The notes beneath the pieces were generated by a model. That model searched no databases, had not been told where the DNA came from, and was given only the letters and a program-made list of their open reading frames with translations. From positions 1 through 19,131 of the forward strand of contig JAPWTZ010000011.1 in assembly GCA_028275775.1 (NCBI GenBank): a DNA stretch of 19,131 nucleotides, written 5' to 3'. Within the stretch, counting starts at the first letter, position 1, and every line of letters starts with the position of its first letter. Positions 466-19,131 of this stretch are shown one piece after another. The position numbers and the translations under genes are program-made. This DNA comes from Candidatus Nanopusillus sp. (GTDB lineage Archaea > Nanobdellota > Nanobdellia > Nanobdellales > Nanobdellaceae).

Positions 466-3400
466 TTAGCTCTCTTTGAGTTTAATTCCTGTTTTTCTTT
501 CTATAATTTCTTTAACTTTTTTTCTAAGTTTTGATTCTGATATATATTCATTTAACTTTTCTTCAATTTCTTCAGAAATAGAATTATATACCCCTTCAAA
601 ATCTTTTAATATTTTTTCCATAATTGATTCATCCCTTGGTATTTTTACTTCTTTATTTCCAGAAATAGCAGAATAATATATCCATTTTGCTTCTATTGAA
701 GATTTACATCTTATTCTTTCATTACCAAATTTTACATAATATCCAAATATGTCTCTTACAATTTCTATATTTTCTCTTTCTTCTGGTAATTGTATTATTT
801 TTTCTATCTCAATTTTTGGAGATAGATAATTATCTGGAAATTCTTTCAATTTACTTATATCTATTTCACTTATTATTTTTTCGGCGTATGATTCTTCAAT
901 AATTTTCTTTCCTTTTTTATTTTCCTTTTCTACGCTTTTAGCTCTTTCAATTCTTTCCTTTACGAGCTGAATAATAGCTTTATATACATCTAATTGTTCA
1001 TCTTCTGTTAAACCCAAAATTTCACCCATTATAATTTTATCTAACTCTCTTCTATCTGGCTTTACTTTATCTAATGAAACTCCTTCTGGAGAATTAGCAC
1101 CAAGTTCTTCAAAGATAGATCCAATTTCTCGTTTTGAAAAAATATTTATGATTTTTTTAATTCTATTTATTTGCTCTTCCTTAAAAATATTAGGATTGAT
1201 TATTAACATTTTAGCATATTCATATACTTTTACATCAAGGGCTCCTTCACCTAAATTTACTCGTCCCAAGAGTTCAACAAACAGAGGAATAAGAGATGAA
1301 TTCAATATTGCGGAAAGAATTATCTTTTTGTTATTATTGTTTTCTTTTAGTGAAATTCCATAAAGTCTGGCATCAATAAAAGATTTAACATTATTTAACC
1401 AGAAAACATGTCTGTCATTAAAGCTCATCATGGATAATAATTCCCCTTGTATTTCCTCTAGTTCATACCATCTTTTTCTTGAAGCACAAGTGGGCCTTTT
1501 ATGAAATCCTCGAAGTTCTCCCCATTCAATATACTTCAAAACTTTTGTTCCCTTTAGCTCAGATTTATCCTTATGTATTAGAAGAACTCTATATTTTAGG
1601 TTTTTAGGATCAATTAAAATTGATTTACATTCTCTAGGTGATTTTATAACATAATTTGGAATCCAATAAACATATCCATCATCTCTTAAAACATCATCTA
1701 ATTTCATTATTTTAGCATATTGGCTCTCTTTAAAATATTCCCCTCCTTTATCCTTCCATACATGTTCTGGAACCGGCACTTCTTCTTCTTTCTTTAGAGG
1801 ATGCATCCAAAACTCCCTTTCAATGCCCCACCTCTGAATATCATCTTCAGTTAAATAGAAGAATTCATTAGCACCAGTTGTAAATCCTCTTCTTACTTCA
1901 GCAATTTCTTTTAATGGAATAAGTATTCCTTTTCCTTTTCCTTTTTCCAAAATCTTAAAGAATATTTCCGGTGCTCTTATATACTTTCCCCATTTTGAAC
2001 CAACATATTCTTTCTTTTCTTCATCATAACCCTCTTTTAACAATTCCTCTTGGAGTTTTGGGTATATTCTAATCTTATCGTCTTCATATAATTCTTTAGT
2101 ATTTTCTATTTTATTAATCAGATCATCAAGAAATTTAAATCTTCCTTCTTCATCAGCTGGAATCAATTCCCTAAGTGGAACTTTTAATTTAACAAATTTA
2201 ACAAGGTTGTTATTTCTTTCTTTTTCATCATCACATTTCTCTAAAATAGTTATTACTGTATTTATATCTGCATCTGGAAAAACTCTTTCTTTTGTTTCAA
2301 TTATTGCAATTATTTTACAATGTTTTAAGAAAAATTCCTGTAAATCTTTTCCATAATCAACATCCAACCATGAATTTGTTGTAATATATCCTAATCTTCC
2401 TCCATTCTTCAAAAATCTCAGGCTATGAATGAAAAAGTATGCATATATTCCTGCCCTTTTGTTTAACTTTATATTCTCCCCCCAATCTTCTTTTAATGTT
2501 TTTTGTAATTTTTCCTTATAGTTTTCAACATATGCATCTAATTCTTCCTGTCTTGTGTAAGGTGGATTACCAACAACAGCATCTAATTCATCAGGAAGTT
2601 CAATCTCTATACTTTCTCCCCCCAAACTTTCAACCAAAAATTTATTATATCTTCTCCATTCCTTAACTTTACTAACTTTTATATCAAAAAAATCTTTACA
2701 AATTACAATAGGGTTTTCTATTGTACTTAAATCTCTAATAGCAAGATTGATTGTTGTTAAATGTGCTGCAAACTTTGATATGTCAACCCCAATTAACTGT
2801 TTTAATATTTCTTTATGGGATTTAGAAGGATCTAAATGTTTTATCCTAGCATAAGCTCTAACTAAAAATGTTCCAGCACCACAACCAAAATCAGCAACTT
2901 TTGCATTTGGGTCTCTTATACAAAAAGTATTGATTATATCAACTATATCTGGATTTGTAAAATATTGACCAAGTTTATATCTTTCTTCATCTGGAATTAA
3001 TTTATCAAATATATGTCCAATATCTTTATATCCAAGCTTAGAAAAATCATACTTAGATAAACTATTGATAAAACTTCTAAGACTTGGAACTATTGAATTT
3101 GGTATTGGCATTCTTTCCAATAGATCAAAACCAAAAATTGCTTCAAAATCTTTTGTAGTTTTTTCGGCTTTGTCAAAGTATTTTTGTAATTCTCTTTTAA
3201 GAGCTTCTCCATCTTCAATATCTTCTAATATTATTGGTTCTAAAGATGAAAAATTCTTTCTAAGGGCGTTATAGAACATTACTTTATTCATGAGCAGATA
3301 TAAAAACTGTCTAGCAACTTTTTCAAATGGTTCAATATCATCAGTAATTGGTGCACTCCACCCTTGGGACACAAACCACTCAATAAGCTTGTTTCTAAAT

Positions 3401-4023
3401 TCCGCATTCCTTCTAAATTTTTCTCTAATTTCAATAGCAATATGATAATAAACATTATCTACAAAACTTCTAAGGGAATAAATAAAGAATTCATCAATTG
3501 GGATCTTTGGTAATTCTTTTTTTCCTTCTATAAGTTCTGCAAGATCCTTCAAAAACTTTCTTAAACCTTCTTTAATTCTCTTTTGAACTTCAGGATCACG
3601 TATCTCTTTAAGGTCTCTAATTTCAACCAATTTATATATACTTACCCTTTTTTCGTCCCATGAAATAACTTCTTTATGAGTTTCCCAAAGTGCTAATTCA
3701 TTGATATTCCAAGTAGCAAAGAAAGGACTTGTTGGAGGGAGAATAGCTTTTAATTGAGCATCTTCAACTACTTCCCAATCATAAGGGTTCCAACCTTGAG
3801 TAGGATCTTTCAATTCTATATGACAAGCTGGTTTGTTTAATACTTTCCAGATAATTATATCAGGAAATTTTTTTAATTTACCATCAGGTGTTTTTTTCTC
3901 AACATCAACATCAGCTCTCTCAAAAGGTAAGTTATCTTCTTTTATGATTTCATTTATTATTTCAACCAATATTTGTCTAACAGTATTTTCTACATATTTA
4001 ACAGGTTCAGTATTTTTACCCAT
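466..4023 (-). CDS. Type IIG-like fused restriction endonuclease / N6-adenine DNA methyltransferase (single-chain R-M with a C-terminal target-recognition region)
   Basis: 1185-aa ORF. The N-terminus carries a PD-(D/E)xK-type motif, FPD55IIIW…CHIE70LK72 (nt 3808-3861). The methyltransferase has motif X-like GQYFTNPDIV, motif I VADFGCGAGTF (nt 2869-2892) and motif IV NPPY (nt 2557-2568, checked codon by codon). It continues with GIYAYFFIHSLRFLKNGGRLGYITTNSWL and a TaqI-C-like RRGFTTGANEFFYL. This order (nuclease, helical region, gamma-class MTase, TRD) is that of Eco57I/MmeI-type enzymes. Confidence 0.8.
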   Translation of the reverse strand: MGKNTEPVKYVENTVRQILVEIINEIIKEDNLPFERADVDVEKKTPDGKLKKFPDIIIWKVLNKPACHIELKDPTQGWNPYDWEVVEDAQLKAILPPTSPFFATWNINELALWETHKEVISWDEKRVSIYKLVEIRDLKEIRDPEVQKRIKEGLRKFLKDLAELIEGKKELPKIPIDEFFIYSLRSFVDNVYYHIAIEIREKFRRNAEFRNKLIEWFVSQGWSAPITDDIEPFEKVARQFLYLLMNKVMFYNALRKNFSSLEPIILEDIEDGEALKRELQKYFDKAEKTTKDFEAIFGFDLLERMPIPNSIVPSLRSFINSLSKYDFSKLGYKDIGHIFDKLIPDEERYKLGQYFTNPDIVDIINTFCIRDPNAKVADFGCGAGTFLVRAYARIKHLDPSKSHKEILKQLIGVDISKFAAHLTTINLAIRDLSTIENPIVICKDFFDIKVSKVKEWRRYNKFLVESLGGESIEIELPDELDAVVGNPPYTRQEELDAYVENYKEKLQKTLKEDWGENIKLNKRAGIYAYFFIHSLRFLKNGGRLGYITTNSWLDVDYGKDLQEFFLKHCKIIAIIETKERVFPDADINTVITILEKCDDEKERNNNLVKFVKLKVPLRELIPADEEGRFKFLDDLINKIENTKELYEDDKIRIYPKLQEELLKEGYDEEKKEYVGSKWGKYIRAPEIFFKILEKGKGKGILIPLKEIAEVRRGFTTGANEFFYLTEDDIQRWGIEREFWMHPLKKEEEVPVPEHVWKDKGGEYFKESQYAKIMKLDDVLRDDGYVYWIPNYVIKSPRECKSILIDPKNLKYRVLLIHKDKSELKGTKVLKYIEWGELRGFHKRPTCASRKRWYELEEIQGELLSMMSFNDRHVFWLNNVKSFIDARLYGISLKENNNNKKIILSAILNSSLIPLFVELLGRVNLGEGALDVKVYEYAKMLIINPNIFKEEQINRIKKIINIFSKREIGSIFEELGANSPEGVSLDKVKPDRRELDKIIMGEILGLTEDEQLDVYKAIIQLVKERIERAKSVEKENKKGKKIIEESYAEKIISEIDISKLKEFPDNYLSPKIEIEKIIQLPEERENIEIVRDIFGYYVKFGNERIRCKSSIEAKWIYYSAISGNKEVKIPRDESIMEKILKDFEGVYNSISEEIEEKLNEYISESKLRKKVKEIIERKTGIKLKES

Positions 4024-7783: not shown

Positions 7784-9547
7784 ATGAAATCTATTTCTCC
7801 AATAATAGCATCAATATTAATTATTGTTATTGTTATTGCAATTTTTCTAATTCTTTATGCATTTGTTTCAGGTATGTTTTCTTCATTAACATTACCTTCA
7901 AATAATTTAGTTAATCAACAATCTAAAGTAATATCATTTACAATAAATAATGTATATTGTTCAAATAATACAATATATTTTGATATATATAATAATGGAA
8001 ATATACCTATTAATATAAATAATTCAATAATAATATTCACTGATAATAATGGAAATACTATATCTATAAATGGGAGTAATGTTATATGTAATAATGGAAA
8101 TATAATTTCTATAGGAAGTAATAGTTTATGTTATATTAACCTGCATCCATGTTATTATAATGATACATATTATATAAAAAGTATGAATTTTATATATAAT
8201 GGAATAAATTATAATTATGATATATTAAATAATAAATTTAATTTAATATTTTCTACTATTAATAATTCTCAATCATTAAATACTACATCTAATTCAAGTA
8301 GTTCTGGTTCTTCTAGTTCAGGTGGTTCGGGTACTTCGAGTAGTCCTCCCTATTCTACTTCAAGTACTCCAACATGTCAATCATCTTATTTACCTTTAAT
8401 ATTATATAATACACAAAATATTCCAACTCCTTCTCCTTTTCAACAAGATATAGCAATATGTAATGGAAGTATTAATATTGGTAATAATTTTGCATATGTA
8501 AATAATGCAACATTATTTAATTGTATAAATCCAAATGGACAAAATGTATATTTTACAACATCATATAATAGTAATCCTAATATTTACTCGTGGTATGAAG
8601 GTCAATTAATTAATGGAAATACATATTGTGATGTTTGGTGGATTAATTTATCAAATGGAATTCCTGCTAATAATAATATAACAATATATATGTACGTAGG
8701 AAATAGTAGTAATAATTATTACCAACAATATTATCCATATGTAGGAACTAATGCGCAAGTTATAGGAACTATGCAATATGATAATGGTAATTATACATTT
8801 ATAGTATATGGATATTTTAATAATACATTTGATGGATGGACTGGATATATATGTTATAGAGCATCCGTTAATTATCTACCCCAAGCAACTCCTTATGGTA
8901 TTGAAATGTTAAATAACACAACTGGTGAAAGTACATATATCTTACCTCCAAATAATTGGAATATCACAGAAATACCTTTAATTGTTGAAGAAGCTTGGTA
9001 TTATGGAGGGGGATCTCCAAATGCAGATGCAAATATAATAGCATTATTTGGAAATACAAGTCAACAATTTCCTCCAGGTAATGTTGGATCTACTTCTGAT
9101 GGTGAGAGTTGTACGTCTAATTTATCTACATTTGTACAATTTGAATATGATGGTGCTGCTCCTCCACCCAATTCTGAAGCAGCAATGTTAAAATCTGCAG
9201 TAACAAATCAATATTTAAATTATACATATCTTCCGCCAAACGGAGGAACATTTTATTCATATTTAATTGTTAATTCATCTTATGCACAAACAGGATATTA
9301 TATTTATAATTCTAATCAAGTATGGGTTCCATTAACATTATTAGATACATATGAAATGTACTATAATATAAGTTATAATGGATCCCTACTTTATGTATAT
9401 TCTAATATCAATTATAATCCATTTCAATATGATACATTAGAAATAAGTGCAGGAGATGGAGTATATACTTCATATCAATATATAGAATGGGTTGTTGCTA
9501 GAGCATATCCTCCAAATGGAGTAATGCCATCAATTTATATTGGTTAG
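7784..9547 (+). CDS. Secreted multidomain surface protein: archaeal pilin-type N-terminus, Ser/Thr linker, DUF2341-like module, ConA/LamG-like C-terminal domain
   Basis: The N-terminus MKSISPIIASILIIVIVIAIFLILYAFVSG fits the archaeal Pilin_N signature (K/R-x-x-SP-[VI]I-x-x-[IV]L…). The linker is SNSSSSGSSSSGGSGTSSSPPYSTSSTPT (residues about 169-197). YLPLILYNTQ…NPNGQNVYFTT…IYSWYEG…YCDVWWINLSNGIPANNNITIYMYVGN fits the DUF2341 pattern as I recall it. The C-terminal signature is YIEWVVARAYPPNGVMPSIYIG. There are many N-x-S/T sequons and very few K/R/E residues. Confidence 0.75.
   Translation: MKSISPIIASILIIVIVIAIFLILYAFVSGMFSSLTLPSNNLVNQQSKVISFTINNVYCSNNTIYFDIYNNGNIPININNSIIIFTDNNGNTISINGSNVICNNGNIISIGSNSLCYINLHPCYYNDTYYIKSMNFIYNGINYNYDILNNKFNLIFSTINNSQSLNTTSNSSSSGSSSSGGSGTSSSPPYSTSSTPTCQSSYLPLILYNTQNIPTPSPFQQDIAICNGSINIGNNFAYVNNATLFNCINPNGQNVYFTTSYNSNPNIYSWYEGQLINGNTYCDVWWINLSNGIPANNNITIYMYVGNSSNNYYQQYYPYVGTNAQVIGTMQYDNGNYTFIVYGYFNNTFDGWTGYICYRASVNYLPQATPYGIEMLNNTTGESTYILPPNNWNITEIPLIVEEAWYYGGGSPNADANIIALFGNTSQQFPPGNVGSTSDGESCTSNLSTFVQFEYDGAAPPPNSEAAMLKSAVTNQYLNYTYLPPNGGTFYSYLIVNSSYAQTGYYIYNSNQVWVPLTLLDTYEMYYNISYNGSLLYVYSNINYNPFQYDTLEISAGDGVYTSYQYIEWVVARAYPPNGVMPSIYIG
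8366..8790 (+). repeat. Conserved paralog block, copy 1 (partner at 17994..18416, same strand)
   Basis: In my manual alignment, residues C198-G335 align without gaps to C171-G308 of the 516-aa protein with 113/138 identical. The nucleotide similarity is obvious by eye, for example caacaagatatagcaatatgtaatggaagtat in both copies. Confidence 0.85.
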
Positions 9548-15712: not shown

Positions 15713-16528
15713 ATGATTGCTGGATTAGAAATACATCAACAAATTGATACAAAAGAAAAATTGTTTTGCAATTGTCCTACAAATTTAAGTGATAAATATG
15801 ATTATAGAATTGAAAGAAAATTGAGAGCAACATTAAGTGAAATTGGAAAAAAGGATATTGCTGCAGAATATGAGACAATGAAAGATAAAAAATATATATA
15901 TGAATATTCTAAAGATTATTCTTGTTTAGTTGAACTTGATGAAGAGCCTCCACATTTAATTAATATTGAAGCACTAAAATTTGGAATATTAATTTCAACA
16001 TTTTTTAATATGTATATACCAAAGGTTTTACAGGTTATGAGAAAAATTGTTGTAGATGGATCAAATACCTCTGGTTTTCAAAGAACATTATTATTATCAT
16101 TAAATGGAGAATTAAAATATAAGGATAAAAAAATAAGTATAGGAACAATTTGTATTGAAGAAGATGCTGCAAGAAAAATTGAAGAAGGAGAAGATTATAT
16201 AATTTATAGATTGGATAGATTGGGAATACCATTGATAGAAATATCTACAGGTCCAGATTTAAGAGATCCAAAAGAAGTAAAAGAAGTAGCTGAATATATT
16301 GGATTAATATTAAGATTAACTGGAAAAGTAAAAAGAGGGTTGGGAACTATTAGACAGGATGTAAATATATCAATAGAAAGGGGAGAAAAAATTGAAATAA
16401 AAGGTGTACAGAATTTAAAAATAATAGATAAAGTTTGCGAACTAGAAGTGAAAAGACAGGAAAGGATGATAGAATGGAAAAAGATTATGAATGAAAAGGG
16501 TATTGAAGGATATGAATTAATAGAATAG
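15713..16528 (+). CDS. gatE: Glu-tRNA(Gln) amidotransferase subunit E, N-terminal fragment only (split or truncated gatE)
   Basis: MIAGLEIHQQIDTKEKLFCNCPT, RLDRLGIPLIEISTGPD and GLGTIRQDVNISIERGEKIEIKGVQNL are GatE/GatB cradle-domain signatures. The ORF stops at 271 aa, right after the E-x-x-RQ element. Full-length GatE is roughly 600+ aa. Confidence 0.75.
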   Translation: MIAGLEIHQQIDTKEKLFCNCPTNLSDKYDYRIERKLRATLSEIGKKDIAAEYETMKDKKYIYEYSKDYSCLVELDEEPPHLINIEALKFGILISTFFNMYIPKVLQVMRKIVVDGSNTSGFQRTLLLSLNGELKYKDKKISIGTICIEEDAARKIEEGEDYIIYRLDRLGIPLIEISTGPDLRDPKEVKEVAEYIGLILRLTGKVKRGLGTIRQDVNISIERGEKIEIKGVQNLKIIDKVCELEVKRQERMIEWKKIMNEKGIEGYELIE

Positions 16529-16544
16529 ATTTATATTTTTTAAT
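16529..16544 (+). promoter_or_regulatory. TATA-like box (atttatattttttaat) about 25 nt upstream of ATG 16560
   Basis: The position is consistent with a leaderless first gene of the three-gene pilin-like operon. This is a weak call in AT-rich DNA. Confidence 0.3.
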
Positions 16545-16559
16545 AGATCATAATTCTTA

Positions 16560-17039
16560 ATGAAAACTCAATTCGGAACAATTCTTGTAGAAATTATATT
16601 ATTTATAGTTGCAGGTATTGCTGCTTATATATTTGTTTCTACTGCATATAATAATTTAAATGGAATAAGTAATGCTGCAATTGCAAATTCTCAATCATTA
16701 GAAAATCAATTAAATACTTATATTACACTAGATTCTTGTGCATATAATAGTACAACAAATTTATTATATTTCTATGTAACAAATAGAGGAAGTGTTGTAC
16801 TAAATCAAAATTTAACATTATTGTTTATTAATGGAGAACTAATAAATAATACTCAAATATATATTGCAAATAGTTATACTGGTACTTCTGCTTGGGGTCC
16901 ATATGATACAATTGCAATTGTTGCAAATATTTCTTTAGCAACAAACTTTTATCAGGTAAGAATTGTAGCATCTACTGGAGCATATGCACAGGATATAATA
17001 TATGTTAATACAACTGCAGGTACTTGTACAATAGAATGA
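16560..17039 (+). CDS. Prepilin-like / FlaF-FlaG-like secreted protein with a class III signal peptide
   Basis: In MKTQFG|TILVEIILFIVAGIAAYIFV, a Gly is followed by a hydrophobic helix with Glu at +5, the classical type IV prepilin cleavage context. The body contains LYFYVTNRGSVVLNQNLTLLFINGE, a beta-sandwich motif (x-N-x-G-x…φ-x-φ-N-G) resembling archaeal FlaF/FlaG and pilin domains. Confidence 0.65.
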   Translation: MKTQFGTILVEIILFIVAGIAAYIFVSTAYNNLNGISNAAIANSQSLENQLNTYITLDSCAYNSTTNLLYFYVTNRGSVVLNQNLTLLFINGELINNTQIYIANSYTGTSAWGPYDTIAIVANISLATNFYQVRIVASTGAYAQDIIYVNTTAGTCTIE

Positions 17040-17482
17040 GATCAGATTTAGGATCAATTATTGGGGCAATTATTGGATTTGTTATTTTTATTGTTTCTTC
17101 ATCAGTTTTATATTTAATTTTAAATAATTATTATAAAAACTTTTATTATACAGCAAATTCAATAGATAATCAAATAAAAAATATTGTTGGAGAAAATATA
17201 AAATTTTTAAATAATCAAACAAACTATTCAAACCCTTATTTGATTATATATAATAATGGAAACAAAGCATTGGATTTATCTTGTTTTCAATTATATGTTA
17301 ATGGTTATTTTTCTTCATTTAATTATTCTATAAATTATTTATATTCATCAAATCTATTATTACCAGGAGAAAATGCAACAATATATTTTGGTAATAATTA
17401 TTTAGTAAATAATTCATGGAATTATATAATATTGGTATCCTGTTATGGGGTTAAGTTTCAAACTTTAATATATGCTAATTGA
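17036..17482 (+). CDS. Prepilin-like secreted protein
   Basis: The first ATG (17036) overlaps the upstream TGA as ATGA. The track's earlier start at 17024 is a TTG. The N-terminus is MRSDLGSIIGAIIGFVIFIVSSSVLYLIL. The motif YLIIYNNGNKALDLSCFQLYVNG parallels the neighbouring gene. Confidence 0.6.
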   Translation: MRSDLGSIIGAIIGFVIFIVSSSVLYLILNNYYKNFYYTANSIDNQIKNIVGENIKFLNNQTNYSNPYLIIYNNGNKALDLSCFQLYVNGYFSSFNYSINYLYSSNLLLPGENATIYFGNNYLVNNSWNYIILVSCYGVKFQTLIYAN

Positions 17483-17492
17483 TTAATATAAT

Positions 17493-19043
17493 ATGAGATT
17501 ACAATCTGAAACATTTATAGCATTAATATTATTAGTAGCAGGTGCTCTTGCTACTGTTATGATATACAATATAATATTTCCAAATTTAAATATAATAAAT
17601 CCTTCTGGACAAGAAATTTCAAGATCTTTAAAATTGAATTTCCAATTATTAGATTATTATATAGCAAATAATACATTATATGCATATGTAAAACCCTCAG
17701 AACCTGTTAATTATTCTCAAGTATTTGCAATTTTAAATAATAGGTTAGTTAATGTTTATCCTTATAATTCAAATGGATCTATTGTAAATCCATATAATAA
17801 TGGTTTATTAATTGTTGTTGCAAATTTGTCACAAATTCCTCCGGATCAAAATGGAAATTATGAATTAGAAGTTGGATTAGAAAATGATATAATTGGAATA
17901 TTTGATATAAAATATATTTCAAATACATTAATTAATTATTTTCAACCCCCAATTGTTTTTAATATATCAACATCTACATCAAGTACCCCAACCACCCCAA
18001 CCTGTCAATTATCATATTTACCTTTAGTAATATATAATACTCAATCTATTTCAACTCCTTCCCCATTTCAACAAGATATAGCAATATGTAATGGAAGTAT
18101 AAATATAGGAAATAGTTTTGCATATATAAATAATGCAACGTTATTTAATTGTATAAATCCAAATGGTCAAAATGTATACTTTACTACAACTTATAACAGT
18201 AATCCAAACATATATTCATGGTATGAAGGTCGATTGATTAATGGAAGTACTTATTGTGATGTTTGGTGGATAAATTTAACAAAAGGTATCCCTGCTAATT
18301 CAAATATAACTATTTATATTAATATAGGACCAAATAGCACTAATTACTATTCTCAATATTATCCATATGTTGGTGCACCTATACAAGTTTTAGGTACTTC
18401 TCAATATGATAATGGACAATATGTATTTAATTATTATCAAAACTTTGGAAATCTAAGTTCATTACCTTCACCATGGACTTATGTATATAATAATCAAAAT
18501 AGTGTTTCTTTTTCTACAAATTATACAATTATCCCATATTCATCTTCTGGTAATGAAGGTATTACTACAACAGTAAACTTTAATATACAAAATAATATAT
18601 TACAAATTTATGCTTCTGTTCCAACTACAAGCGGTACAAGTTGGGATTATATAGATTTAGGTGTAGGTGCAGCAAATAATAGAAATACATACTTTATTGG
18701 TGGCGGAGGTGGACTTATAGCTGGTGGTAATAATAATGGTGCTGCATTTACATATCCCAATTCAGGATCCGCAGGCAAATTTAATTTATATGTAGGGACT
18801 TCTAATGTAGGAAGTACAACATATAATTATGCTCCAACAATATATGAAATTGGATTTTCTAGTAGTTATACATATTTCTTAGTAAATTATACTCAAATAT
18901 TGAGTACTACAACAATACCTGGCTCATTTAGTTTACCAATAACAATAGGACAACAAAACTCGGGTAATAATATATACTTATATTGGGTTTTATTAAGATC
19001 ATATCCACCTAATGATGTAATGCCTTCAATTTATATTAGTTAA
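17493..19043 (+). CDS. Secreted multidomain surface protein, paralog of 7784..9547: FlaG/pilin-like N-terminus, Thr/Ser linker, DUF2341-like module, Gly/Asn-rich ConA/LamG-like C-terminal domain
   Basis: The N-terminus is MRLQSETFIALILLVAGALATVMIY. The linker is NISTSTSSTPTTPT. A 138-aa block is about 82% identical to the 587-aa protein. The C-terminal signature is YLYWVLLRSYPPNDVMPSIYIS. I count only 14 charged residues in the last 346. Confidence 0.75.
   Translation: MRLQSETFIALILLVAGALATVMIYNIIFPNLNIINPSGQEISRSLKLNFQLLDYYIANNTLYAYVKPSEPVNYSQVFAILNNRLVNVYPYNSNGSIVNPYNNGLLIVVANLSQIPPDQNGNYELEVGLENDIIGIFDIKYISNTLINYFQPPIVFNISTSTSSTPTTPTCQLSYLPLVIYNTQSISTPSPFQQDIAICNGSINIGNSFAYINNATLFNCINPNGQNVYFTTTYNSNPNIYSWYEGRLINGSTYCDVWWINLTKGIPANSNITIYINIGPNSTNYYSQYYPYVGAPIQVLGTSQYDNGQYVFNYYQNFGNLSSLPSPWTYVYNNQNSVSFSTNYTIIPYSSSGNEGITTTVNFNIQNNILQIYASVPTTSGTSWDYIDLGVGAANNRNTYFIGGGGGLIAGGNNNGAAFTYPNSGSAGKFNLYVGTSNVGSTTYNYAPTIYEIGFSSSYTYFLVNYTQILSTTTIPGSFSLPITIGQQNSGNNIYLYWVLLRSYPPNDVMPSIYIS
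17994..18416 (+). repeat. Conserved paralog block, copy 2 (partner at 8366..8790)
   Basis: See copy 1. The alignment is ungapped and all four Cys residues are conserved (C171/C199/C220/C255 versus C198/C226/C247/C282). Confidence 0.85.
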
Positions 19044-19069: not shown

Positions 19070-19131
19070 GGTCCGGGTAGCCTAGTGGTAAGGCGTCAGG
19101 CTGTGGACCTGAAGATCGCGGGTTCGAATCC
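19070..19131 (+). tRNA. tRNA-His (anticodon GUG) with genome-encoded G-1. The 3' end is cut by the window edge.
   Basis: The sequence reads G(-1)-GUCCGGG-UA-GCCU-AGUGGUA-AGGC-G-UCAGG-CUGUGGA-CCUGA-AGAUC-GCGGG-UUCGAAUCC…. GUG lies at 19103-19105. The extra 5' G is the His identity element. Confidence 0.85.

Follow-up and report, generated by a model that had tools for sequence, protein, structure and literature searches.

The 19,131-nt window analysed here is the forward strand of contig JAPWTZ010000011.1 (labelled C37 of genome G000) from Candidatus Nanopusillus sp. (GCA_028275775.1; family Nanopusillaceae; 536 kb in 40 contigs, ~80% complete, 23-25% G+C). Three adjacent genes, here named g1, g2 and g3, lie near its end. 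We consider it fairly likely (probability about 0.6) that g1 and g2 represent arlF and arlG, set apart from the other genes of a scattered archaellum, and that g3 encodes a paralogue of ArlF/G type bearing a lectin-like head. Close homologues were found in Candidatus Nanobsidianus stetteri, Candidatus Nanopusillus acidilobi, Nanobdella aerobiophila and strain YN1, all hot-spring ectosymbiotic nanoarchaea. A prediction made earlier from the letters of the window (the original prediction) had described three adjacent + strand open reading frames (ORFs) with an ATGA overlap, a 10-nt gap and basic N-termini followed by helices, and their coordinates are as it claimed:

16560..17039, + strand: g1, 159 aa, MKTQFGTILVE...
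17036..17482, + strand: g2, 148 aa, MRSDLGSIIG...; its ATG lies inside an ATGA together with the TGA stop of g1
17493..19043, + strand: g3, 516 aa, MRLQSETFIAL...; begins 10 nt past the stop of g2

The N-terminus is short and basic in all three proteins and leads into a hydrophobic helix. The longest ORF of g2 in the ORF listing reaches back to a TTG at 17024; the start was placed at the ATG at 17036 because orthologues favour it.

The two small proteins belong to the ArlF/ArlG family

The family is covered by Pfam PF01917 (Arch_flagellin), NCBIfam NF052590/NF052591 and arCOG01822/01824. On PF01917, g1 passed the cut-off (38.4 bits, cut-off 29.5), and among the NCBIfam models it matched ArlF with 52 bits (E 7e-14) and ArlG with 38 bits (E 2e-9). 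It was the sole clear ArlF/ArlG match to a hidden Markov model (HMM) in the whole genome. Searched alone, g2 reached only E 7e-4 on the ArlF model. Profile comparison with hhalign linked g2 end to end to the g1 family (98.3%, E 2e-14), and to 62 distant ArlF/G proteins with 99.6% (E 5e-25). These 62 were sampled from 639 proteins, nearly all 135-160 aa long and matching from about residue 3, which were retrieved when a joint g1+g2 profile was searched against 1.84 billion representatives. The ArlF model matched 62/62 of the sample and the ArlG model 60/62, the flagellin model 1/62.

To this the predicted fold of g2 can be added. The AlphaFold (AF2) model had a mean predicted local distance difference test (pLDDT) score of 88.8 and consisted of a long helix (residues 5-52) and a beta-sandwich (55-147). 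Foldseek searches of the PDB at E<=1e-3 returned 14 matches, namely archaellins, two archaeal pilins and Sulfolobus acidocaldarius FlaF/FlaG, and nothing else. The latter comprised FlaF (4P94/4ZBH), FlaG (5TUH) and the FlaF-FlaG complex (5TUG/6PBK), with E 3e-5 to 9e-4. Identity in the structural alignments was 19-22% to FlaF/G versus 10-12% to archaellins, and over its full length the model superimposed best on Halobacterium salinarum archaellins (TMq, query-normalised, 0.78-0.80). Sequence and profile searches of the PDB with g1, g2, g3 and the family profiles of g1 and g2 gave nothing significant; the link to the FlaF/FlaG structures hence rests on fold comparison.

A beta-sandwich motif, N-x-G...(I/V)NG, had been proposed to be shared by the small proteins. 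In the joint g1+g2 alignment, residues N75, G77 and G92 (g1 numbering) are indeed invariant, and N75 and G77 stay invariant over the 62 distant ArlF/G-family proteins. The FlaF/FlaG-like reading of both small proteins, likewise proposed from the letters, thus gains profile and structural matches, and it extends to the first 150 residues of g3 (see below).

The higher ArlF score of g1, together with the order F before G in arlCDE-type clusters (PMC10117864), suggests that g1 is ArlF and g2 ArlG. Contrary to this assignment, the g2 model is marginally nearer to FlaF than to FlaG.

g3 joins an ArlF/G-type anchor to a large head

The g3 protein was divided as follows (residues of g3 in brackets):

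17493..17579, + strand: basic N-terminus and hydrophobic helix (residues 1-29; MRLQSE-TFIALILLVAGALATVMIYNII); helix 2-28 in the AF2 model
17637..17915, + strand: ArlF/G-type beta-sandwich (residues 49-141; pLDDT ~80; sandwich 50-140 in the model)
17961..18002, + strand: Ser/Thr/Pro-rich linker (residues 157-170; ISTSTSSTPTTPT), read from the sequence; 143-171 disordered in the model
18003..18362, + strand: divergent DUF2341-like module (residues 171-290; pLDDT ~78), common to pilin-anchored paralogues
18453..19040, + strand: variable C-terminal cassette, probably a ConA/LamG-like sandwich (residues 321-516), with the conserved tail WVLLRSYPPNDVMPSIYIS

Searches of Pfam and NCBIfam with the N-domain alone gave no useful match. 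By hhalign the domain matched the g1 family with 96.6% and the distant ArlF/G set, in whose construction g3 had no part, with 95.0%. In Foldseek the g3 model was paired with FlaF (4p94_B; probability 1.00, TMt (target-normalised) 0.49, E 0.04). Residues 1-150 of g3 are a third ArlF/G-type domain, nearest to that of g1.

About 350 residues follow the linker. The original prediction had called the third protein DUF2341/ConA-like, a label of which one part stood: the head is related to the other large protein of the window, while g3 itself did not match Pfam DUF2341 (PF10102) even at E<=10. The head alone likewise gave no useful match in Pfam and NCBIfam. Paralogues in the same genome scored 15.8-18.1 bits on PF10102 at the corresponding place (cut-off 23.4), and the positional orthologues of g3 in three other genera 71-85 bits. 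Some close homologues of g3 carry a precomputed PF10102 match, and one is named DUF2341 by NCBI. Aligned to the canonical DUF2341 of the orthologues from these three genera, the middle of g3 gave an hhalign match of 72% (E 3e-5, 56 columns), with NGxNVYF...YSWYEG...WWINL..GIPANSNITIY facing DCGDIRF...YWIES...IWVKVP.ISANGNATIY in the core. The DUF2341 label of g3 is thus one by way of its paralogues and orthologues. For the head, Foldseek listed the L-type lectin ERGIC-53/LMAN1 and GH16 enzymes as weak matches (probability 0.9-0.99, E 0.016-0.04, TMt 0.4-0.48). The head is described here as "DUF2341-like plus probable ConA/LamG-like", a putative lectin.

A related architecture was seen in the unrelated protein P0292 (536 aa, from a 6135-bp Logan contig), which has an ArlF/G-like N-domain (residues 3-147) and a Laminin_G_3 ConA-like domain (E 4e-18). 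Fusions of ArlF/G with lectins may therefore extend beyond the proteins described here.

Head modules are exchanged with pilin-anchored paralogues

A second lectin-type paralogue had been proposed within the window, and BLASTP bears it out:

7784..9547, + strand: pilin-anchored paralogue, 587 aa; 79% identity to g3 over 150 aa

Its N-terminus matches NCBIfam UpsA with 53 bits. As a group, the pilin-anchored paralogues have N-termini of the UpsA/Pilin_N type, and they are solitary genes that no small genes precede. With the paralogues on C37 (7784-9547) and C17, residues 171-320 of g3 share 79-81% identity, which equals or exceeds what they share with orthologues. Identity of the g3 N-domain tracks phylogeny, falling from 89% in N. 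acidilobi and 82% in genome G012 to 60% in YN1, 57% in N. aerobiophila and 32% in Nanoclepta. That of residues 321-516 does not (N. acidilobi 25%, YN1 56%). Some metagenomic g3 alleles combine N-domains that are 89-92% identical with C-terminal parts of 33-39%. This mosaic pattern indicates that head modules have been exchanged between alleles and between paralogues, and the 7784-9547 paralogue is a candidate recombination partner of the g3 head.

Predicted localisation and leader peptides

In composition the three proteins differ from their cytoplasmic neighbours. Lys plus Arg make up 2-4% versus 15-22%, Asn 12-17% versus 3-9%, and N-glycosylation sequons number 2.7-3.4 versus 0-1.1 per 100 aa. 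Conserved cysteine pairs are present in g1 (Cys60/Cys156) and g2 (Cys83/Cys136, invariant). Composition, N-terminal hydrophobic helix and conserved cysteine pairs together point to membrane-anchored proteins with their bulk outside the cell, in acidic surroundings.

The leaders of g1 (MKTQFG/T, the slash marking the predicted cleavage site) and g2 (MRSDLG/S) resemble those of the archaellins of the same genome (MVRAQFG/L, MKGQGG/S and MKGQAFG/S) in length and in the terminal Gly. At position -2 they carry F or L, not K/R. Class III leader processing at the predicted sites of g1 and g2 is possible on this pattern. The N-terminus of g1 had been called a textbook G/TILVE prepilin context. Of this claim the archaellin-like leader of g1 remains; Glu+5 is restricted to the genus, with S, N, Y or H at that site in other genera, and an alignment of the N-termini places Glu or Ala at the position of the cleavage-site Gly in g3 and its orthologues.

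The gene trio is conserved in five of six genera and tracks the archaellum motor genes

Of the 20 genomes of the order, 18 have g1. The order g1-g2-third gene was found in 5/6 genera, which span two families of the order, and within the genus the trio is tightly coupled and invariably located between gatE-N and tRNA-His. Conservation of order and coupling in relatives thus agrees with the tight three-gene unit originally proposed. In syntenic genera the third gene keeps the same N-domain and has a variable head. In genome G019 the head is fused straight onto g2, with no separate third N-domain. We take this as an argument for the head functioning on an anchor of ArlF/G type. A profile of the g3 N-domain was searched against 301 genomes of the phylum; in the 299 others sampled the domain was not found, save for three marginal matches outside the order.

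Only G002 (N. equitans-like, complete) and G004 (76% complete) were without g1, and both are also without ArlH and true ArlI. Other FlaI-like ATPases are retained where g1 is missing, two in G002 and three in G004. Apart from G018, which is incomplete, every genome with g1/g2 also has ArlH or true ArlI.

Two loci with interrupted frames were noted. In G018 (C4 ~2030-3416) the g2-head fusion contains three in-frame TAG codons and no frameshift, and two of the TAG codons stand where G019 has TGG. Recent pseudogenisation, an artefact of the assembly or read-through may lie behind this. In the complete genome of N. acidilobi (G006:C1 ~595396-596330) three single-base insertions (TT to TTT, AAA to AAAA and AAAAA to AAAAAA) interrupt g1/g2 in otherwise 95% identical DNA, and g3 is intact. 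All insertions fall in homopolymer runs; decay is a less likely cause than sequencing error or phase variation, and the breaks were not counted as evidence.

Archaellum and other filament genes elsewhere in the genome

The observation that the window contains no assembly ATPase, platform protein or prepilin peptidase holds for the window; the genome has many such genes elsewhere. The whole-genome search for type IV filament machinery that had been proposed found an arl operon on contig C6, with a variant copy on C13, in which an arlCDE fusion, a 127-aa gene, arlH and arlI follow in this order. ArlH scored 217 bits (cut-off 215) and ArlI 654 bits (cut-off 550). An ArlJ-like platform gene is located on C19 and three archaellin-type genes on C26. 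Besides the one true ArlI there are at least four FlaI/PilB-like ATPases with TadC-like platforms. A genome devoid of type IV filament machinery, which would have refuted the original prediction, is therefore not what is seen. Two further genes are relevant here:

C26:59135-60118: candidate divergent class III signal peptidase (A24-type), 327 aa; PF01478 24.4 bits (cut-off 26.5)
C6:723-1106 (variant C13:2250-2633): 127-aa membrane protein between arlCDE and arlH, conserved, with an invariant cysteine pair

In the candidate peptidase, Asp22 in SYQDIKYKSV and Asp80 in AIGD stand where PibD/FlaK have their pair of catalytic Asp residues. Two nanoarchaea were reported to be without a peptidase of this family (Makarova et al. 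2016). The 127-aa protein had no match in Pfam or NCBIfam, and hhalign comparison with the profiles of g1, g2 and the distant ArlF/G proteins (10-45%) gave no link.

Between the C6 and C13 copies, ArlI is nearly identical and the 127-aa protein 78% identical, and every relative has a single copy. The two versions of the operon suggest two strains in one bin, and counts of the large-head paralogues may hence be inflated. Two relatives have their ArlI match split inside stop-free frames, G009:C1:498553-501540 (1049 aa) and G001:C21:921-4307 (1172 aa), which suggests insertions of the size of inteins in their archaellum ATPase.

Putative promoter and gene neighbourhood

The surroundings of the operon, and one further gene of the window, are as follows:

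466-4023, - strand: fused restriction-modification enzyme of Eco57I/MmeI type (type IIG-like), 1185 aa, at the window's start
15713..16528, upstream of g1: N-terminal half of GatE, 271 aa, model positions 11-277
16530..16537, + strand: TATA-like box TTTATATT, read from the sequence, its centre ~27 nt 5' of the g1 ATG
19070..19131, + strand: tRNA-His(GTG), truncated by the window end; downstream limit of the operon

The distance from box to start is the usual archaeal TATA spacing, which suggests that transcription starts from a promoter of g1's own and yields a leaderless message. A scan for bacterial (sigma-70) promoters and terminators gave no excess, the model being a bacterial one that does not apply to archaea. 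We infer that g1, g2 and g3 are co-transcribed.

Of the flanks originally named, a gatE fragment and tRNA-His, the tRNA was confirmed and the term fragment was not. The remaining part of GatE (model positions 277-445) is a separate ORF on contig C19 (4317-4838), and in every relative with this neighbourhood the N-terminal half is 269-271 aa long. Such conservation marks it as half of a split gene and not as a decayed one. ARAGORN did not call the truncated tRNA-His on the window; in four relatives it called a complete tRNA-His(GTG) 26-29 nt 3' of the gene in the position of g3.

A probable detached part of the archaellum stator and the alternatives to it

In the current archaellum model, ArlG polymerises from the membrane and ArlF caps the ArlG filament and binds the surface layer (S-layer) (PMC10117864). 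By the reading that we prefer, a single leaderless transcript would give rise to all three proteins, each of which would be inserted by its N-terminal helix with the bulk outside the membrane. As archaellin-fold membrane-anchored proteins, g1 and g2 would form a stalk outside the membrane that fastens the archaellum motor to the S-layer, their small sandwiches assembling together akin to ArlG and ArlF in Sulfolobus/Pyrococcus. The head of g3 would add a carbohydrate-binding grip, either on the cell's own glycosylated S-layer, as a reinforced stator foot, or on surface glycans of the host, and recombination with the pilin-anchored paralogues would swap head cassettes. We infer the F/G assignment, the physical assembly, the binding of sugar and the target of the head. 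A foot gripping the S-layer would fit the precedent of ArlF. The original prediction had seen in the trio a self-contained filament or stalk-plus-adhesin module. That proposal is not supported here, as the family is ArlF/ArlG and the genes track ArlH and true ArlI, which a detached part of the stator fits better.

Several observations weigh against the stator reading. Both small proteins stay under the NCBIfam ArlF/ArlG equivalog cut-off of 110 bits (g1 52, g2 20), although this says little because only one control genome passes these cut-offs. No Foldseek match of g3 reaches E 1e-3, and its model, good only for residues 1-280, is unreliable in the C-terminal half (pLDDT <50, residues 284-516), probably because the alignment mixes different head cassettes. 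The genes g1-g3 lie outside the arl operon, on C37 and not between arlCDE and arlH. This detachment weakens the case for membership of the ArlF/ArlG family and does not exclude it, because scattered arl genes have already been reported in Nanobdellati (PMC13705601). The 127-aa protein inside the arl operon could itself be a very divergent ArlF or ArlG. ArlF and ArlG are said to have archaellin domains and no class III signal peptides (PMC10117864), though the pre-sequence of g1 (K-x-Q-F-G) appears archaellin-like. The phyletic link rests on the two genomes that lack the genes, the genomes are interrelated, so that independent events are few, and in G018 (82% complete) g1/g2 are present and no ArlH/I was found. 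Finally, a head exchanged with pilin-borne copies would fit an exposed adhesin no worse than a stator foot.

One alternative is that the trio are minor subunits of the archaellum filament, processed as archaellins are, with the lectin head of g3 on the shaft and g1/g2 perhaps in a specialised proximal segment. The g2 model superimposes best on H. salinarum archaellins (TMq 0.78-0.80), the leaders of g1 and g2 match those of the genome's own archaellins in length and terminal Gly, and a candidate class III peptidase with Asp22 and the AIGD Asp80 is encoded. Free cells of N. aerobiophila swim. On their archaella the proximal segment, 76 nm long, is corrugated, and thorn-like densities not seen elsewhere occur sporadically (Gaisin et al., PMC11104419). 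In the same organism MJ1_0772 and MJ1_0773, by sequence and position the orthologues of g1 and g2, were termed archaellin-like and read as hints of extra filaments (bioRxiv 10.1101/2023.10.27.564410). The same preprint detected no signal peptides in them, and g3 has Glu or Ala for the cleavage-site Gly. Size (148-159 aa) and profiles are those of ArlF/G, with the flagellin model matching 1/62 relatives, identity is 19-22% to the FlaF/G sandwiches versus 10-12% to archaellins, and without g1/g2 the genome would have no recognisable ArlF/G. We therefore regard filament subunits as unlikely. The thorn-like densities do leave room for a filament-borne lectin. A narrower form of this idea, that the g3 family is a lectin-bearing, ArlF/G-derived subunit sporadically placed in or on the archaellum and is seen as the thorns of N. 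aerobiophila, while g1/g2 may form the 76-nm segment, is a speculation to which we give slightly less credence still. If it is true, these parasites would swim with a filament that also senses the host and grips sugars, and its heads would be swapped with pilin-borne copies.

An independent pilus for host attachment, with two minor pilins and a tip adhesin built by one of the other FlaI/PilB-like ATPase/TadC-like pairs, is to us no more probable than filament subunits in general. At least four non-archaellar ATPases with platforms are available in the genome, DUF2341 proteins in Epd-type pilus loci of Methanococci were likened to PilY tip adhesins (Makarova et al., PMC4858521), the head is common to paralogues with UpsA-like pilin N-termini, and a variable head suits host recognition. 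What speaks against a pilus is that the N-domains are of the ArlF/G type, unlike the Pilin_N/UpsA type of the paralogues, that no relative has an adjoining ATPase or platform gene, and that G002 and G004, with two and three FlaI-like ATPases, are without g1, which tracks ArlH/ArlI. The least probable is that these are ordinary signal-anchored surface proteins with an Ig-like fold by descent, without a role in filament or motor, their gene order being operon inertia. Beta-sandwich folds are indeed common; such proteins would leave unexplained the full-length, specific ArlF/G profile matches that include the N-terminal helix, the order and coupling kept over five genera, the joint absence with ArlH/ArlI and the g2-head fusion in one lineage.

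Significance and comparison with known systems

No parts of the archaellum are understood less well than ArlF and ArlG, and the way in which its motor is fastened to widely differing cell envelopes is a standing question. A lineage with a third, lectin-headed ArlF/G-type gene beside arlF/arlG is a candidate for a stator grip on a glycosylated S-layer, or alternatively for a motility organelle adapted to host recognition in obligate ectosymbionts. Exchange of head cassettes between g3 and the pilin-anchored paralogues bears on surface variation in these parasites. For annotation, a second stator gene is identified beyond published lists. A single FlaF and a single FlaG gene were given for the nanoarchaeote Nst1 (Makarova et al., PMC4858521); the YN1 paper lists FlaBDEHIJF and no FlaG (PMC11420986), and the N. 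aerobiophila preprint only ArlBHIJ (10.1101/2023.10.27.564410). The undescribed partner gene can also be named. It is the orthologue of MJ1_0774, YN1_3250 and Nst1_194; none of these locus tags is named in the searchable literature, the preprint does not mention MJ1_0774, and papers mention genes 1 and 2 only.

The DUF2341 proteins of pilus loci (PMC4858521) share with g3 a DUF2341 module followed by a ConA/LamG-like sandwich, a pilin/archaellin-like N-terminal helix and presumed surface display and adhesion. Unlike them, g3 has an anchor of the ArlF/G type, not a pilin, its gene lies beside arlF/arlG and in no pilus locus, and its DUF2341 part has, in this genus, diverged too far to be recognised by the Pfam model. 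Among type IV pilins built in modules, with a lectin or another binding module attached, are PilB and PilC of Streptococcus sanguinis. They resemble g3 in joining an N-module of a filament family to a functional head for display; unlike these bacterial subunits, which were shown in the filament, g3 has an anchor from the non-filament stator branch. N. aerobiophila, the organism of MJ1_0772/0773, also has a ConA-like lectin, MJ1_0179, carried on an N-terminal helix (bioRxiv 10.1101/2023.10.27.564410).

The system to which g1 and g2 are most readily compared is ArlF/ArlG of S. acidocaldarius and Pyrococcus furiosus (4P94, 4ZBH, 5TUH, 5TUG, 6PBK). Both have a membrane helix and an archaellin-type sandwich in 130-170 aa, two adjacent paralogous genes and the N-x-G motif, and are found with arlH/I/J. 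The nanoarchaeal trio differs in that it is detached from the arl operon, in the archaellin-like, Gly-ended leaders of g1 and g2, and in a third family member with a ~350-aa lectin-like head that always follows g1/g2.

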